Notes: generated from the letters alone by a model not told the origin. A stretch of DNA of 64,000 bases from an uncultured Candidatus Saccharibacteria bacterium (GCA_964478705.1 CAYZIR010000005.1:508-64507), one strand, 5' to 3'; counted from the first letter of the stretch, positions 1 through 60,142 are shown. Program-made: numbers and translations.

Positions 1-1082
1 AACATCGTTTGATGTGTCGCTCACGACTTCTACACGACACGATTCCTGAATCTGTGTGTTTGTGAACGTACAGGTCACCTCTTCTCCTTCTGAGAGCTCA
101 ACAGTAACTTCACCGTCATCACCAACCGACTGGTCCGTACAGCTGATTTGTGGGTATTCCCATCCTTCAGGAACGATTTCCGAAATCGTGTGTGAACCTA
201 CGCCAAGCGCCTGAGTCGTTGACGCTCCGTCACCAAGAGATCCTGCTGATTCTTGGTTAACGAAAAATTCAAAGGTAGCTTCTTGGTTGCTTCCTTCTGC
301 AATCTCCTTAACGATTGTGATTGAACCGCCCTGTGCGACCTCTTCACATTCGTTAGCGTGGATTGCCTGGCCCTCTGCGTCCCAGTTCTTACCAGGGAAA
401 TAGAATGGGATGATAACGATCTTGTACCAGAATGGAGGAATGATGTCCCCGCTGTGGCCGTTGTGACCGTTGTTCAACTTGAGGATGGAGTTGATCGAAG
501 GGCTTTGTGAGACCCATCCGTTACCGTTGTTTGCGTGACAGATATCAACATTTGAAGGAAACGATGGAAGATTGATAAATGCAGCAAAACCTTCTGTTGA
601 AGGTCCTTCTGTAAGCTCTTCACAAGCGTCACCGACGCCGTTTTCATCTGCATCTGTCTGATCTTCGTTTGGTGTGATCGGACAGTTGTCGTCCTCATCT
701 CCAACACCATCATCGTCGAGATCTCCGTTGCCATTGTCGTCGCCTTCAGGAGCCTTTTTGTTGTTTGAAGGACCTGAAATTGATGCGCCCTGAACTTCAG
801 GAGCAGGCTGTGAGTCGTCTACCGAATCGCACGCGTCTCCGACATCATCGCCGTCAACGTCCGACTGGTCGGTGTTCGCATCTGCTGGGCAGTTGTCTGT
901 GTCATCGTTCACACCATCGTCGTCCGCGTCGAGATCGACGGGTTCAACCGGTTCGGTTGATTCGTCGACAACCGGAGCATCTTCTGCTTTTACAGAATTA
1001 GGTGATGAATAAAAAAGACCCGCCATCAAAACGAGTGCGAGCACGAGAAGACCCGTTGTCCAGGCAAAGCCGGCATTGGATC
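1..1082 (-). CDS. Secreted protein with thrombospondin type-3 (Ca-binding) repeats, 5'-partial in window (C-terminus runs off the window edge)
   Basis: Minus-strand ATG at 1082 gives MKLRSNAGFAWTTGLLVLALVLMAGLF (signal peptide), then two DxDxDGxxDxxDNCP...Q.D.D.DG.GDACD repeats (DLDADDDGVNDDTDNCPADANTDQSDVDGDDVGDACD; DLDDDGVGDEDDNCPITPNEDQTDADENGVGDACEE). No stop before position 1, so absent from ORF track. The plus ORF 765..1001 is antisense and spurious. Confidence 0.6.
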
Positions 1083-45307: not shown

Positions 45308-45559
45308 TTACTGAAGCTCGATTGTTGTGGTTGCGTTCAACGTGGTCGTTGATGTGCTTCCAGATTCATCTGTCGTAACGACTGTCGTGTTTGACGTCGT
45401 TGTAGCAGGAGTCGTTGTAGCACCATCCATGATAACTGCATCGTCTCCGCGGTTTACGAAGAAGAGGATACCAGCGATGATGAGGATAACGACAATCACC
45501 AAGATGGTGACACCTGCGTTACCGCTTTTGAAGTTGCGTGACATACCAATGTTTGACAT
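45308..45559 (-). CDS. Hypothetical membrane-anchored Thr-rich small protein
   Basis: N-terminal TM (VTILVIVVILIIAGILFFV), Thr-rich tail. Confidence 0.4.
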   Translation of the reverse strand: MSNIGMSRNFKSGNAGVTILVIVVILIIAGILFFVNRGDDAVIMDGATTTPATTTSNTTVVTTDESGSTSTTTLNATTTIELQ

Positions 45560-45684
45560 TTAATTACTAATCACCAATTGACCCTATCGGCGTATTACGC
45601 TTACAAACGCCGTTCAAAAGCGTCCGAAAGGAGCATCGCGACAGGAAGCCACATTCTAACAGAAAAGGGGTGAAAAAGCTATAC

Positions 45685-45722
45685 CCAGCTTGGTTCAAAC
45701 CAGGCTGGGTAGAGCACCGAAA
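45685..45722 (-). terminator. Rho-independent terminator for the large surface-protein gene
   Basis: TACCCAGCCTGGTTTGAACCAAGCTGGGTA + T-rich tract on minus strand. Confidence 0.6.
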
Positions 45723-45749: not shown

Positions 45750-48700
45750 TTACGAGCGGGTATTTTCGACTGTTTCTGGAGCAAATGCGTACGCACCACC
45801 AATTGATCGAAGAGAGCGTTCTTTCAGCATGTCGAGAACTCGCACAAGTGAAAGGCGAACTGACGTATAGGCTGAGTCATAACGTTCGTCAACACCATGA
45901 AGGAGCTCTGCGACGATTGATTCAAGTTCTTTATTCGAGAGATGGTAGGTCACTTCAGCGATGTGCGTATTCACACGGGTTCGCTCTTCTGCGCCCTCAA
46001 GTCGTGCACGATGTGCACTGTCGAGTTCAGAAACCACCTTGCGCATGAAGTCGGCGACCGGCTGTTCTTGATGCTTCAACATTCGAAGGAAGGTAAAGAC
46101 CTTTTTGTCTTCGCCTCGGACAATCCATTCAACAAAGATTGGAATCATCGAGAGTGTTGAGATGAAGAGTGATTCACGAACACGCTCTTTATCAAGAACC
46201 AACCAACCATCTTCACGAGGGAAACGACCCTTTGCGATTTCGATTACCTGCGAGAGGCGCTCGAGGGCTTTCTTTTCATCGTTCTCAACTGAATTGCCGA
46301 TGAGTTCTGCTCCATCATCAGAAACCAAGACTCGTGATACTCGTGCTTCGTTCTGAATGCGAGAATAATCGCGTCGAGCAGGTTGTTCGGTCATTCGGGT
46401 ATCAACAAACGCTGGTGTAGAGGTTTTCTCAACAACTGGTGTTGATACTGACGCAAGTGCATCTGGAGCTTGTGCTACCGGTCGTGAGAATGATTCATGC
46501 ATGCGTGATTCTTGTACAATTTCACGAATAGACTGAACACGGGCTGGCGCACTTGCTGTGACCGTATGTGCGAACTCTTCGTATGAGGCGAGAGGTTCAT
46601 GAGCAGACGATTCGTACTCAGCGTCCATAGATGGCGCTACGTTTGTGAATCGCTGTCCTGACTTGCGGAGAAACGCGTATACAACACCTGCTGAGATTGC
46701 CACGAGACCAAGAATAAAGAGAATGATTTGGACAATACTTGAGCCAAGACCAGTGTATGGAACTTGTGTGAGCGAAATCGATGCTCCCAAGACTTCTGGT
46801 TCAGAGAAGAGCACAACGCTCGGTCGGCGACGGTGTCCGCCACCCCCACCACCTCCATCATCATCGTCATCGTCATCATCATCATCGTCGTCATCTCCAG
46901 GAGTTTTGACAACAACACTACCCTTACATGCAATGCCACCACTTGGTCCAGTGAACGAAGCAATGTAAACAGTGTCTACCGTTGGCTTTGTTGTTGTTGA
47001 ACCATTCAGTGGAACTGGTCCGATACCCTGATCAATCGTCGCTGATGTGACATTCTTTGATGTCCACGTGAGTGTTACTGTCTCGCCACTCTGAATAGAG
47101 TTTGGACTTACATCGAGCGTACACTCAGGAACCGGCTCGCTTGAAGGAATAGTGAATTTCACACCTGCATTACAGTAGTTGCGCCCAGGGGTGAAGTTTG
47201 GATCAACCCAAAATGAGTACGTGCGACCTGGCTTGACCGGAACGTTCGTAACAGTTGCTCCGGTGATTCCGTCTTCACAATAGTAGTGAGGGCTTGCACC
47301 ATCAAGACAGGTTTTGAAGCGTGGGTCATCGTAGCGGTCGGTCGTACCGTCATCAAGGCGAATATTGTATGAGACCGCACCTGGAACTGGATTCCACGAG
47401 AGCGTGACGGTGTTTGTATCTGCAGGAAGTGTTCCTGACGGGAAGAGATTTGTTGGGGGAATACAGATGGGGCTGTCAGTCACCGTAATCGTGAGGGTCT
47501 GAGTAATCGCACATTCAGCACCGCTATTCGCAGATGTTGCCTTAACGAGGTATGTGTATGTACCAACCGCAGTAACTGTTCCCGAAATCGTTGCGCCATT
47601 GATCGAGAGACCTGGAGCAGCATTCACCGCTGTGATAACGATTGAGACAGGAGCGATACCACCCGACGTCGTCACCGTGTGTGAGAACGGAAGATTAAGA
47701 CCGGCAACCGCTGTGTTTGAACTTGTGATGGCTGGTTTTGCAGGACACTGGTTGGTCTGGCCAACAGTGATTGTAAAGACCTGACGTGTCGCACATGAAA
47801 GTGTGCTGTTACCACCGCTCATCGCAGTGACCTCGTAGGTGTACACACCAGGGGTCGTTGGCGTACCCGACACTGTCGAAGCACTCGTGTCGATCACCAA
47901 GCCCGGTGCAGCAGGACCAATAGGATTAATGCTGATTGAAATCGGATTCACACCGCCTGTGGTTGTCACTTTGTAGAAGTACGGAACACCAAGCATCGCT
48001 GTTGCTGAAGGAGTGCTTGTGATCGTCGGTTGAACAGGACACTCATTGACTCCGTCGCCAATGATGATTGTCAGAGTTTGTGTTGGACCACACGCAGAGT
48101 CACCATCAGCATTTTGTGCCTTGATCGAATAGGTGTATGTGCCGGTTTGTGTTGGCGTACCTGAGATTGTCTTACCGTTGATTGAGAGACCAGGAGCAGG
48201 ATTGACCGGTGTGATTGTTACAACAGTGCCAAGACCGCCCGCGGTTGTTACGGTGTGTGAGAAAAGCTGACCAACCTGACCCGATGCTGACGCAGGACTT
48301 GTGATGGTCGGCTGACCTACCGGACACTGTGGAGGAGGCACGATCGTAACTGAACACTGTACGGTCTTTGTCTGACTCTTAAACGTTACTGCAACCGTCG
48401 CAGTTTTAGTTCCAACAGTTGTGTATGTGTGAACGACTGGGTTTGTCGTCGAACCATCAGGGAACGTATCATTACCGTTCCAAAGATATGAGAATGCACC
48501 CGTAACACCCGTAATTGTCGCAGTCCATGTTACTGGTTCGCCAATTTTTGCAGGGTTCGGGAGACCGACACACACAAGATCCCAATCAGGATCCTGCGAA
48601 CAGAGTGGGAGCTGCTGGTAGACCTGACCTTTGATGAGCTTTGCAGACGATGAATAGTTTGAGTTTCCTGGGAATGAGACGACATCGAGCTGATAGCGAC

Positions 48701-49199
48701 ATGACGGAAGGTCGACGCGGAAGCTCTTGGTCTGACCAGGGCCAATTGTTTTTTCGTCAGAATCAAAAAGTGTCTGAGGAATCTGGTGAATCGGATCTGA
48801 ATAGACTTGGAAAACTTTCAATGCAAATGGGAACGAACATGTTGGGTGTTCGTTGGTAATTGAGACAGTACCACCTGCAAGATCAAAAGTGTTGTAGATC
48901 TTGAAGTACTGGTCACGAAGCTGACGCAACTCAAAGTCGCTTGCTGGAATACAATCGTCGACTGTCGTTTCTTGACCACCGTCGCCAGGGGCAGGATCGA
49001 CGGGTTCGTCTTCTTTTGGTGCGGGTTCAACAGGTGTAGGCTCTGGTGCTGGGTCAGCCTTCTCTTCTTTTGTTTCTTCGGCAGTCGTGCCACTCGTGTC
49101 TCCACTTTCTTCAGCGGTTACGGCGAACGGAATTTGCCAAGCAACAAAAACCACAAACGCGAGAATTGCGAGTGTTTTGAGGACTGAAATACGTGTCAT
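45750..49199 (-). CDS. Large single-pass surface protein: signal peptide, Pro/Glu linker, four Ig-like repeats, FnIII-like domain, poly-Asp/poly-Gly tract, TM helix, ~330-aa cytoplasmic domain
   Basis: Four ~95-aa repeats (QCPVGQPTITSPASASGQVGQLFSHTVTTAGG..; ECPVQPTITSTPSATAMLGVPYFYKVTTTGG..; QCPAKPAITSSNTAVAGLNLPFSHTVTTSGG..). D13-G7-HRRRP tract encoded at ~46800..46900; VPYTG then TM then RK; start set at MTRISV (49199). Confidence 0.7.
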   Translation of the reverse strand: MTRISVLKTLAILAFVVFVAWQIPFAVTAEESGDTSGTTAEETKEEKADPAPEPTPVEPAPKEDEPVDPAPGDGGQETTVDDCIPASDFELRQLRDQYFKIYNTFDLAGGTVSITNEHPTCSFPFALKVFQVYSDPIHQIPQTLFDSDEKTIGPGQTKSFRVDLPSCRYQLDVVSFPGNSNYSSSAKLIKGQVYQQLPLCSQDPDWDLVCVGLPNPAKIGEPVTWTATITGVTGAFSYLWNGNDTFPDGSTTNPVVHTYTTVGTKTATVAVTFKSQTKTVQCSVTIVPPPQCPVGQPTITSPASASGQVGQLFSHTVTTAGGLGTVVTITPVNPAPGLSINGKTISGTPTQTGTYTYSIKAQNADGDSACGPTQTLTIIIGDGVNECPVQPTITSTPSATAMLGVPYFYKVTTTGGVNPISISINPIGPAAPGLVIDTSASTVSGTPTTPGVYTYEVTAMSGGNSTLSCATRQVFTITVGQTNQCPAKPAITSSNTAVAGLNLPFSHTVTTSGGIAPVSIVITAVNAAPGLSINGATISGTVTAVGTYTYLVKATSANSGAECAITQTLTITVTDSPICIPPTNLFPSGTLPADTNTVTLSWNPVPGAVSYNIRLDDGTTDRYDDPRFKTCLDGASPHYYCEDGITGATVTNVPVKPGRTYSFWVDPNFTPGRNYCNAGVKFTIPSSEPVPECTLDVSPNSIQSGETVTLTWTSKNVTSATIDQGIGPVPLNGSTTTKPTVDTVYIASFTGPSGGIACKGSVVVKTPGDDDDDDDDDDDDDGGGGGGGHRRRPSVVLFSEPEVLGASISLTQVPYTGLGSSIVQIILFILGLVAISAGVVYAFLRKSGQRFTNVAPSMDAEYESSAHEPLASYEEFAHTVTASAPARVQSIREIVQESRMHESFSRPVAQAPDALASVSTPVVEKTSTPAFVDTRMTEQPARRDYSRIQNEARVSRVLVSDDGAELIGNSVENDEKKALERLSQVIEIAKGRFPREDGWLVLDKERVRESLFISTLSMIPIFVEWIVRGEDKKVFTFLRMLKHQEQPVADFMRKVVSELDSAHRARLEGAEERTRVNTHIAEVTYHLSNKELESIVAELLHGVDERYDSAYTSVRLSLVRVLDMLKERSLRSIGGAYAFAPETVENTRS

Positions 49200-49273
49200 A
49201 TATGCGTTACTCATAGTCTGTAGAAATAAAACCCACACCAGTAATCGTAGAATCAATTATACACCTAATAATA

Positions 49274-49906
49274 TTATCCGTCAAGTGCTTCATCTGCTAT
49301 CGGATACGCACCAACAAATTCTGCTGAAACAACATATCGCTCTTCTTTTGCACCAAATACGTTACACGTCGCAAGCGTCAGCATCTTCACCGAGCTACGG
49401 AGATTGATTTCGGCCTCTTCGGCATTGACCAATCCGACACTTTTGACGCGATAGAGGTATTCTTTCCCTTCTGACTGCACGCGAATCACATCATTCTCTT
49501 TGAGATTTTTCAAACCATTGAATACCTTATACGCTTGATTGTTGACGACACGAAATCCTGTTGAGTGGCCAAGGAGAAACATATTGCTCGTATCTTCAAG
49601 ATCACCCGACCCTGGGTAATGTACAACGCCCTCCATGAGTGCTGCATCAAGCGCTTCAATCGAGCGTGACACCGGATTCATAATCTTTGCGTCAACATCG
49701 ATAGCATCAATAATGATCCGAACTGGCGCATCATCATATGCCAACGGAGCTGTGGTGTCTGTCGTCGTACTCAATGATACTGAAGAGTTTTCCTGTGCAA
49801 TATCGAGTTTCGGCATAATGCCCAATGACCATGAGAGTGCAAGGAGAATTGAGAATAGAAAGAACCACGTGACACCAACCGTCACAGGTCGTTGCTGTGC
49901 AAGCAT
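49274..49906 (-). CDS. Sortase family transpeptidase
   Basis: N-terminal TM, conserved His (MFLLGHSTGF), active-site TLATC (LTLATCNVFG), Arg downstream. Directly upstream of the surface-protein gene. Confidence 0.7.
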   Translation of the reverse strand: MLAQQRPVTVGVTWFFLFSILLALSWSLGIMPKLDIAQENSSVSLSTTTDTTAPLAYDDAPVRIIIDAIDVDAKIMNPVSRSIEALDAALMEGVVHYPGSGDLEDTSNMFLLGHSTGFRVVNNQAYKVFNGLKNLKENDVIRVQSEGKEYLYRVKSVGLVNAEEAEINLRSSVKMLTLATCNVFGAKEERYVVSAEFVGAYPIADEALDG

Positions 49907-50163
49907 AATGAAACCCTCCACAGCGTAGAGTGGAGAGTTTTTCGAGATGTTTGTTGGTCGAAATACCTTCTGCATATGGGTCGTATCTAGAGAATCAATG
50001 ATATCATAATTTATATAAAAGTCAAGTATCCCCTGTATCTACCGCCACGGTACTTTTTTGAGTCATAGAGCAAACCTTGACATTGTTTTAAAATCGTATA
50101 TAATGCTCGCACCTATCGGTTTTTCGAAGCCGAGGCCATTGTTAGAGGGTTTTAGAAAATTAT

Positions 50164-51225
50164 ATGACATATCTCAATATTCAGACGTCTCAGACCAGCA
50201 AAGATACTGCAAAACAGGTTCTCCGAGGAGTCGGGGCACTTGTCTTTGTTGTTGCGATTGTATGGGTTGGCATGCAGAGCTTCCGTGTACTTCCAGGCGT
50301 TCGTCACCTCTTCGCAAATGCACTCGTCTCAGTACAGTCGTTCTTCTCACCTGAAGAGCGCATCGTTGTATCGGTTATCGACAGCCAAGTTGTTGTCGAT
50401 AAACCATTCAACATTACATGGGAACACCGAGGTAAGGAGGATCGAGGTTCATACACCATGATGTATGAGTGTCGTGACTCAGTGCACCTTGCACGTGTTT
50501 CATCAACAGGAGGAGAATCAACAATCTTCTGTAACACTGAAGTCCCTATCCTTGGAGACGAAACGAACCTTTCCCTCATTGCGCGTGGCAACGTCATCGG
50601 CGCTGTTGATGTTCCCTTCTATGTTCGCTTCACGCGAAATAATACATCGGTCATCAGTGAAGAAGGTTCTACTGCTATCCGTGTTCAAGAAATGTACTTC
50701 GATACCGGCATCGCAACATCAACCGATAGCACTGCAACAACACCCTCAACTCCATCAACACCAGTGACACCAGTTCCTGGAACCCCAACAACGGTCACAA
50801 TTCCTATCGTGACATCACCGACCTCAGATCCAAACGGTGAAGCCGACCTCTCAATTCGCATCATCGCAGTTGGTCTTGTCGATAAAAACAGTGGTTCGTT
50901 CAGCGAACGCAATGAAATTCCAAAAGACCTCCCATCAAACAAGCGTGGTGCAATCAAATTTGAGATTGAAAACAAGGGCACAAAAAAGACTGGTGACGAT
51001 TGGAACTTCTCTGCGAAACTCCCAACATCACCGTCGTACACGTACACATCGCAATCACAGCAGGACCTCTACCCTGGCGACAAGATCGAATTCATCATTG
51101 GTTTCGACAAGCTCGTGAATAAAGATGAGGCAAGCTATACCATCACGGTTGATCCGAAAGATGAGATTGACGAATCAAACGAAAAGAATAACTCAATCAC
51201 ACGCACGATCGAAATTGATCGATAA
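50164..51225 (+). CDS. Membrane-anchored protein with Thr/Pro-rich linker and C-terminal CARDB-like domain
   Basis: N-terminal TM; TPSTPSTPVTPVPGTPTT linker; C-terminal beta-sandwich pattern (ADLSIRII..IKFEIENKGTKKTGDDWNFSAKL). Confidence 0.45.
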   Translation: MTYLNIQTSQTSKDTAKQVLRGVGALVFVVAIVWVGMQSFRVLPGVRHLFANALVSVQSFFSPEERIVVSVIDSQVVVDKPFNITWEHRGKEDRGSYTMMYECRDSVHLARVSSTGGESTIFCNTEVPILGDETNLSLIARGNVIGAVDVPFYVRFTRNNTSVISEEGSTAIRVQEMYFDTGIATSTDSTATTPSTPSTPVTPVPGTPTTVTIPIVTSPTSDPNGEADLSIRIIAVGLVDKNSGSFSERNEIPKDLPSNKRGAIKFEIENKGTKKTGDDWNFSAKLPTSPSYTYTSQSQQDLYPGDKIEFIIGFDKLVNKDEASYTITVDPKDEIDESNEKNNSITRTIEIDR

Positions 51226-60066: not shown

Positions 60067-60142
60067 TGGAGCCGCTTCCCAGACTCGAACTGGGGACCTT
60101 CTCTTTACAAAAGAGTTGCTCTACCAACTGAGCTAAAGCGGC
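60067..60142 (-). tRNA. tRNA-Thr (anticodon TGT), CCA encoded
   Basis: GCCGCTT acceptor, loop TTTGTAA, TTCGAGT, 3' ..AAGCGGCTCCA. Confidence 0.88.

Follow-up and report, generated by a model that had tools for sequence, protein, structure and literature searches.

A candidate sortase/substrate cassette of Paceibacterota in which a sorting-signal-like motif is followed by a DnaX-like cytoplasmic domain

Among the described systems closest to the one reported here are the LPXTG systems (SrtA and protein A of Staphylococcus aureus; classes A-F), which combine an enzyme with the sortase fold, a His/Cys/Arg triad and an N-terminal membrane anchor with substrates that carry a signal peptide, an xPxTG motif, a hydrophobic helix a few residues later, basic residues and a low-complexity spacer before the motif. 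Dedicated sortase/substrate pairs are formed by the class GN 'marine' sortase (TIGR03784) and its adjacent target, by SrtB and IsdC, and by the class D system of Bacillus anthracis, and to our knowledge none of the class GN, SrtB/IsdC or class D substrates has a cytoplasmic domain after its signal. Sortases are present in more than half of the genomes of the candidate phyla radiation (CPR) (PMC6744442), and the papers found by our searches name neither a substrate nor a recognition motif for CPR sortases. Here we describe a stretch of DNA of 64,000 nucleotides (nt) from an uncultured bacterium, in the following called the window (GCA_964478705.1, CAYZIR010000005.1:508-64507), that encodes a sortase and, directly downstream of it, a large surface protein with a VPYTG motif. 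The two proteins share with LPXTG systems all of the elements listed above, and as in the dedicated pairs the sortase gene adjoins an apparent single cognate substrate with a non-LPXTG motif. With moderate confidence, and on the basis of comparative sequence analysis, we read them as a dedicated sortase/substrate cassette of the Paceibacterota (Parcubacteria; Patescibacteria/CPR, as assigned through relatives) in which cleavage between Thr and Gly would yield a wall-anchored ectodomain and a DnaX-like stub in the membrane.

The sortase matches Pfam PF04203 with 74.7 bits at a cut-off of 26.6 (E=7e-21, Pfam scan of the open reading frame, ORF) and contains the motifs GHS (His137), TLATC (Cys204) and ERY (Arg213), which bears out the proposal of an earlier note on this DNA that a sortase with a TLATC active site is encoded beside a large surface protein. 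The triad His137/Cys204/Arg213 is invariant among 27 aligned relatives. According to hydropathy, a cytoplasmic N-terminal stretch is followed by one transmembrane (TM) anchor at about amino acids (aa) 29-57, and this single hydrophobic segment would place the catalytic domain outside the cytoplasm. We assign the enzyme to an unclassified CPR clade.

The adjacent protein, the residues of which are counted here from ATG 49199 (1149 aa), has the layout reported in the earlier note: signal peptide, D13-G7-HRRRP tract, VPYTG, hydrophobic helix, RKSGQR and a long continuation are all present on the minus strand. A search with hidden Markov models (HMMs) finds exactly one sortase and one motif/TM/tail module in the window, the latter with E=1.9e-128, and across all six frames no [VIL]P[YFW]TG or LPxTG occurs other than this VPYTG. 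The candidate sortase-recognition peptide is SLTQVPYTGLGSS, located in the signal-region stretch ASISLTQVPYTGLGSS. [VI]PYTG conforms to xPxTG, and both the distance between motif and TM helix and the basic residues agree with classical signals. The signal does not occupy the extreme C-terminus in the window protein as it does in the relatives at loci L092, L098, L101 and L140; 332 residues follow the motif Gly, so the figure of ~330 further residues given earlier holds when counted from the motif, and 299 (aa 851-1149) follow RKSGQR. Pfam and NCBIfam scans of signal region and tail gave nothing above cut-off, a match of RRF_GI to the tail (E=0.064) being taken as noise. Conservation reaches well beyond the pentapeptide. 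In alignment A2 the residues L, Q, P, Y, T, G and L never vary, and PYTG is near-invariant across 141 family representatives in the form L-[SDAT]-Q-[VIL]-P-Y-T-G-[FLVI], after which 250-420 residues follow. The mean identity of motif and TM helix to eight full-length orthologues, the set used for all such values below, is 67%. Rare variants replace Tyr, namely IPSTG, IPATG, VPETG, IPHTG and IPITG (L091, L125 and L129; P0164, P0207 and others), while Pro, Thr and Gly are fixed. Our literature searches found no description of the PYTG motif or of the internal-signal architecture.

The same fusion is widespread in relatives. Profile A2, which extends from the motif to the tail, was scored against 1.84 billion cluster representatives at 50% identity and matched 1044 proteins at E<=1e-3, 656 at E<=1e-10 and 211 at E<=1e-30; the best 150 matches nearly always cover the motif through the tail end and lie at the C-terminus of proteins of ~400-1900 aa. 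We consider the motif-TM-tail module a Patescibacteria family. The possibility raised in the earlier note that relatives encode the tail in a gene of its own, which a frameshift has here fused to a surface-protein gene, was rejected, and we give such an artefact of assembly or annotation next to no chance. It is true that some database relatives consist of the tail only (P0003, P0004, P0143, P0150), but P0004 is a fragment at a contig end, P0003 stems from a contig of 1374 nt and is probably a fragment as well, and the orthologue at locus L001 is broken only by scaffold Ns. Conservation of the fusion extends to more than 1000 cluster representatives and to 70+ genome loci that are independent of one another, and two further assemblies have the identical sequence as far as the poly-Asp tract. 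The protein collection searched contains no exact full-length copy of the window protein.

Gene linkage points at the sortase as partner of the PYTG protein. Scanning GTDB with the module, one genome per species, returned 71 loci, in which ORFs were called and searched with HMMs; all of them derive from metagenome-assembled genomes (MAGs) of Patescibacteria/Paceibacterota (Campbell-, Wolfe-, Taylor-, Kaiserbacteria and others). Fourteen loci without upstream sequence and the fragmented locus L025 were set aside, and in 54 of the remaining 56 evaluable loci a sortase gene, exactly one in each case, is located 5' of the substrate gene on the same strand, usually abutting or overlapping it. Of the flanking sequence, 202 kb upstream contain 54 sortases and 356 kb downstream not a single one. 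The reverse set consists of the best 80 loci kept from a metagenome scan with the sortase alignment, and all 37 having at least 2.5 kb of downstream sequence feature a same-strand gene 3' of the sortase that encodes L[SN][QDE][VIL]P[YAS]TG and a TM helix. The pairing of sortase and PYTG genes thus appears close to obligate in both directions. L025 was considered as a sortase-less exception and rejected, the gene being fragmented and running off the contig. The upstream genes of L007 and L008 have no Pfam Sortase match; that of L007 (GCA_007375945.1, 5084-5680) aligns to the sortase for ~130 aa, then diverges and is apparently frameshifted in the MAG, and L008 has 600 nt upstream only and was hence not evaluable.

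In the reverse set, the residues after the motif Gly number 33-34, 40-69, 107-240 or 266-466, the window protein belonging to the last range. The proteins at L092, L098, L101 and L140 end 33-34 aa past the Gly and there exhibit a classical tripartite C-terminal signal with TM helix and basic tail, as exemplified by AVYLSQVPYTG IEDNYKLVFFLGILTFFSAWIAYIIV ARKSQTEA-stop. Tail length makes no difference to the motif, to the residues preceding it or to the TM pattern (..LF...L..WS....AY). Because of the near-obligate pairing and the occurrence of classical C-terminal versions beside the same sortase clade, PYTG plus TM helix is very probably the cognate sorting signal of this clade. This indicates that the window protein carries a sorting signal in an internal position and that the long tail is very probably a lineage-specific addition to the PYTG signal.

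A cognate sortase need not anchor its substrate singly, and a pilus or fibre system, in which a class C- or D-like polymerase joins ectodomains head to tail via lysine, has to be weighed at this point. Among solved structures, the nearest (E about 5e-8 to 7e-5) are the class C enzymes 2XWG and 8T28 as well as 2LN7, for which the annotation says no more than LPXTG-site transpeptidase family protein and which is presumably a class D sortase of B. anthracis. Known pilin signals include [IV]PxTG, as in pneumococcal RrgB/RrgC, and Ig-like multidomain ectodomains resemble pilin shafts. The substrate protein, however, has no YPKN-like motif and no [YFW]PK anywhere, each cassette offers a single substrate gene in place of a set of major, minor and tip pilins, no class C model matches at its cut-off, and the architecture of the ectodomain differs widely among relatives. 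Polymerization into pili is thus very improbable.

With a mean identity of 72% the tail domain is the most constrained part of the protein. In the AlphaFold2 prediction, the TM helix leads via a disordered linker to a helical domain that is modelled with confidence and includes a small hairpin, and the structure prediction for the cytoplasmic domain proposed in the earlier note produced a clamp-loader lid and collar fold (tail-only model: predicted local distance difference test, pLDDT, 87; predicted template-modelling score 0.79). In Foldseek comparisons of both models with the PDB, the top 50 matches were all clamp-loader subunits (gamma, delta and delta' of E. coli, delta of B. subtilis, RFC), with ~190 aligned columns, a query-normalised template-modelling score of about 0.5 and E about 1e-4. 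When the tail profile was compared with PDB sequences, the lid regions of RFC2/4/5 came top among natural proteins, not significantly so (E=0.07-1). With hhalign, the comparison to DnaX from Paceibacterota improved from P=0.039 via 0.0018 to 8.5e-8 as the alignments were deepened; the deepest one, 147 tails against 120 DnaX sequences, reached Prob 94.4% and related tail positions 3-126 to DnaX 162-277 (greedy alignment: tail 1-189 to DnaX 160-328), whereas control profiles, either reversed or unrelated, stayed at P=0.19-0.53. As judged from profiles and predicted structures, the tail is homologous to the lid and collar of DnaX without the ATPase domain I. In line with this, the window protein has no AAA match in Pfam, and TM helix and disordered linker precede the tail domain. 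The invariant hairpin AKxx[FY]PREDGWLxL, which has the form AKxRFPREDGWLVLDK in the window family, is an insertion relative to DnaX. Across lineages the tails are modular, some proteins having none and others lid only, collar only, or lid and collar. Canonical, full-length dnaX genes are present separately in related genomes. In a clade with PYTG proteins of 465 aa, dnaX lies ~5.5 kb 3' of the cassette (L002, 13947-14984; L003, L005, L028); this proximity is probably coincidental.

What such a tail does can be thought of in several ways. Possibly, though this is a tentative suggestion, it constitutes a cytoplasmic oligomerisation or docking module that organises the precursor before cleavage and persists as part of the stub, a proposal that takes up the role of clamp-loader domain III as a collar. 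Less likely than that, and in our view improbable, is direct binding of the tail to the clamp loader of the cell itself. The same low expectation applies to a sortase-triggered switch, in which the T|G cut would be a 'site-1' event upon which a site-2 protease, for instance, would release or remodel the stub, and we are equally reserved about its continuation, in which the DnaX-like domain would engage the clamp loader, the replisome or another AAA+ assembly and couple surface deployment or host attachment to replication or growth in an ultra-small CPR bacterium that probably depends on a host. The homology of the tail to the collar-forming part of DnaX and the strong purifying selection on it could be accommodated by such a switch, and PMC11326707 supplies a precedent in the C-peptide remnant of Streptococcus gordonii that is sensed via the SGO_1180 two-component system. 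The family-specific PREDGW insertion, however, is without counterpart in DnaX, and the existence of lid-only and collar-only tails argues for a more generic scaffolding function.

Alternatively, the protein may be an uncleaved type I receptor or adhesin, whose LTQVPYTG and TM helix act as a structural or docking element, tethering for instance the sortase or another partner, and whose DnaX-like tail transmits or receives information across the membrane. A tail that is the most conserved part of the protein is what one expects of a signalling receptor, and plain sorting signals do not usually show conservation that, as here, reaches well beyond the pentapeptide into pre-motif and TM helix. The tail-less terminal signals beside the same sortase clade, however, cannot be accounted for by a receptor; in addition, the pairing with the sortase is nearly obligate and the invariant Thr-Gly is the scissile pair of known sortase signals. 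We therefore judge an uncleaved receptor unlikely. The earlier note had left it undecided whether the sortase separates the ectodomain from an intracellular domain, in a processing-based signalling design, or the protein stays uncleaved; the comparative evidence (pairing, C-terminal signal versions) now favours cleavage, the cut as such is what we infer from it, and the signalling design is speculation.

Several observations weigh against cleavage by a dedicated sortase. The conservation of the tail would fit an uncleaved transmembrane receptor equally well. A natural sortase substrate in which a large folded domain comes after the signal is not known to us, nor did our literature searches bring one up. 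Two of the GTDB loci, L070 and L076, are true exceptions with a PYTG gene and no sortase within 4-5 kb. None of the NCBIfam sortase class models A-F and GN matches the window sortase at its cut-off, the best score being that for class D (44.6, cut-off 165), followed by E (36.1, 160), GN (35.6, 158), C (34.8, 160) and F (20.2, 166), and because the enzyme fits no defined class its specificity is deduced from gene linkage only. The established models for sorting signals likewise fall short: TIGR01167 scores 11.3 bits on the window signal and 13.1 on that of a short-tail relative at a cut-off of 15.9, and PF00746 does not match the window protein and gives 11.8 at a cut-off of 20 for the relative. 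Finally, the length of the cytoplasmic N-terminus of the sortase is not correlated with the tail length of the substrate (Spearman rho=-0.02, p=0.82), and therefore nothing points to a direct contact between sortase and tail.

Taking the evidence for cleavage by the dedicated sortase and these objections together, we consider the following sequence of events the most likely. The substrate would be exported through the Sec pathway by virtue of its N-terminal signal peptide and held as a type I membrane protein by the single TM helix. The adjacent sortase would then recognise the juxtamembrane L-[ST]-Q-[VI]-P-Y-T-G, probably together with the unusually conserved TM helix, and cut between Thr and Gly, whereupon the Ig-domain ectodomain would pass on its acidic/Gly spacer to the cell wall as the presumed acceptor. 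Left behind in the membrane would be a stub made of the Gly, the TM helix, a disordered linker of ~90 aa and the DnaX II-III-derived domain of ~190 aa, for which the roles discussed above are envisaged.

The spacer in front of the motif is by its position analogous to the wall-spanning spacers located 5' of the motif in LPXTG proteins. D13 G7 HRRRP proper comprises aa 769-793; in its coding sequence, a GAT/GAC run with interruptions precedes GGN codons. Its mean identity is 67%, and in relatives it is replaced by D14G7 (the nearest one), D6NGD6NG6, D19, D16G9, G17 or (GD)10, differing even among close relatives. Two independent single-run assemblies of the same organism (SRR16481186 and SRR16481182; L161 and L162) are identical to the window except that their contigs stop within the tract, at 46851 and 46863, which could be caused by heterogeneity of the tract or by an assembly break at low complexity. 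The slippage predicted earlier for this tract is supported at the evolutionary scale by these length differences and by the two breaks: the variation fits expansion and contraction over evolutionary time in a tract that is hard to assemble.

The features of the cassette are compiled in Table 1. The long ORF extends from 49256 to 45750 on the minus strand and would encode 1168 aa if started at TTG 49256. The distance of 17 nt to the sortase gene and the length of 1149 aa stated in the earlier note do not belong together, as the former applies to this TTG and the latter to ATG 49199, which lies 74 nt from the sortase gene. A promoter-like site (49284->49256) spans the stop codon of the sortase gene and overlaps TTG 49256 with its -10 box, suggesting that the substrate gene has its own promoter, independent of the sortase. 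Because TTG 49256 overlaps the -10 hexamer, a start at ATG 49214 or 49199 is more likely, and gene callers choose ATG 49214 in independent assemblies.

Table 1. Features of the sortase/substrate cassette and its immediate surroundings, ordered in the direction of transcription.
Feature	Residues (aa)	Position (nt)	Strand	Basis or remark
Promoter-like site 5' of sortase gene (TTGACT-16-TATCAT, extended TG)		49998..50025	-	10/12 consensus, pattern match only
Sortase gene, 233 aa		49274..49975	-	Pfam PF04203, triad, hydropathy
Near-consensus sigma70-type promoter-like site (TTGACG-17-TATAAT)		49256..49284	-	11/12 matches, consensus scan
Putative sortase-substrate gene		45750..49214	-	1154 aa from ATG 49214; 1149 aa from ATG 49199; stop included
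Signal peptide MTRISVLKTLAILAFVVFVAWQIPFAVTA, then EES	1-29	49113..49199	-	hydropathy, sequence; cleavage site inferred
Acidic/Pro linker	30-90			
Fast-evolving ectodomain		46899..48929	-	repeat alignment, sub-threshold Pfam, PF05345 of relatives
N-terminal domain	91-205			
PKD-like domain	206-291			
Three He_PIG-like repeats of ~95 aa	292-579			alignment
FnIII-like region	580-686			LSWNPVPGAVSY pattern only
Further Ig-like domain	687-767			
Low-complexity spacer G-D13-G7-HRRRP	768-794	46818..46898	-	DNA and coordinates
Sorting-signal-like module		46650..46817	-	conservation, C-terminal counterparts in relatives
Conserved pre-motif VVLFSEPEVLGASISL	795-812			
VPYTG, preceded by TQ	813-817	46763-46749		
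Spacer LGS, then TM helix	TM about 821-844	46739-46668		
RKSGQR	845-850	46667-46650		
Cytoplasmic linker		46377..46649	-	disordered (pLDDT <50), mean identity 18%
Tail domain	942-1135	45795..46376	-	homologue of DnaX domain II (lid) and III (collar), no ATPase
Terminator-like hairpin and T-run 3' of substrate gene		45683..45705	-	pattern match only
Gene for 83-aa single-TM Thr-rich protein, immediately 3' of substrate gene		45308..45559	-	jackhmmer

The ectodomain is far less conserved than the module behind it, its mean identity to the orthologues being 14-38% depending on the part. Relatives retrieved with the C-terminal 356 aa (Parcubacteria-type proteins) have ectodomains that are unrelated to one another yet end in the same C-terminal module. 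Four Ig-like repeats of ~95 aa had been proposed for the window protein; three clear He_PIG-like repeats are present, flanked by a PKD-like and an Ig-like domain, but four equal repeats are not. These repeats become visible by alignment only, as self-BLAST of the protein revealed no significant internal repeats. All Pfam hits on the window protein (PKD/Big) are below cut-off, and PF05345 is carried by relatives. The FnIII-like domain of the earlier note is recovered as a LSWNPVPGAVSY pattern, though without a Pfam match at E<=0.1 over the region.

Sortase and substrate gene form a co-directional pair on the minus strand between gyrB (53521-51398) and ychF (44914-43802). The gene for the small Thr-rich protein is found at the same position in 18 related loci (L001, L006, L009-L022, L081, L082), which suggests a three-gene cassette in this clade with the 83-aa protein as third member. 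It is reminiscent, by analogy only, of SafA, a small TM protein tied to the actinobacterial housekeeping sortase (PMC9282373). In one subclade (L039, L046, L048, L049, L051, L053, L060, L062-L065, L068, L069, L072, L078, L079) the sortase and substrate genes are separated by a gene for a protein of 250-580 aa that has an N-terminal signal or TM segment but no PYTG motif. On the 5' side of the window sortase, a divergent gene (50164-51225, plus strand) encodes a membrane-anchored protein of 353 aa in which a CARDB domain is weakly matched; synteny is preserved in L001 and L161/L162, and the protein may represent another envelope protein of the same neighbourhood. Rfam and tRNA scans detected nothing in or beside the cassette. 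Elsewhere the window carries ten tRNA genes (Phe, Arg, Gly, Trp, Tyr, Cys, Leu x2, Lys, Thr; 5111-25406 and 60067-60142), and no Rfam family other than tRNA scored above threshold in it.

For CPR bacteria these observations provide a concrete and testable candidate for a sortase recognition motif, L-S/T-Q-[VI]-P-Y-T-G with a conserved TM helix, that is missed by current annotation models, and they suggest that the sortase of such a cassette is typically paired with one adjacent substrate. They furthermore describe a large family in which a putative internal sorting signal is followed by a strongly conserved cytoplasmic domain that appears to derive from the clamp loader; no precedent was found for a folded, conserved domain of this origin behind a sorting signal. 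If cleavage occurs, the sortase would divide a transmembrane protein in two, an ectodomain anchored to the wall and a functional fragment inside the cell, which would be the first natural case known to us. It would extend what sorting signals can do and offer a handle on the link between surface and cytoplasm in minimal, probably episymbiotic bacteria. Sortase-based protein engineering, too, could profit from the motif, as its specificity (aromatic X, extended recognition) is new.

When the cassette is set against known systems, it departs from the LPXTG type in that the motif is extended and near-invariant, the TM helix is conserved, the signal is internal with ~300 cytoplasmic residues including a folded domain behind it, and the sortase is a member of no curated class. 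From the dedicated pairs it differs in sortase clade, motif and CPR host. The tail shares the co-linear lid and collar with DnaX (gamma/tau) and other clamp-loader subunits, the AlphaFold2 model matching only clamp loaders in the PDB, but it lacks the AAA+ ATPase domain I, is predicted to be tethered to the membrane and contains the PREDGW hairpin insertion. By analogy, regulated proteolysis of single-pass anti-sigma factors of the RseA/RsiW type comes to mind, where a single-pass protein (type I/II) likewise has a cleavage site next to the membrane on its extracytoplasmic side and a folded domain in the cytoplasm; here, in contrast, the putative site-1 enzyme is a transpeptidase that would re-use the ectodomain, and the tail bears no anti-sigma or DNA-binding signature. 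The idea that a membrane remnant has a function of its own after sortase cleavage is shared with S. gordonii, where, according to PMC11326707 citing Hall et al., the C-peptide of sortase substrates is sensed by the SGO_1180 two-component system. That remnant measures ~30 aa and is sensed by a separate kinase, whereas the remnant in the cassette described here would carry its own folded domain of ~190 aa.

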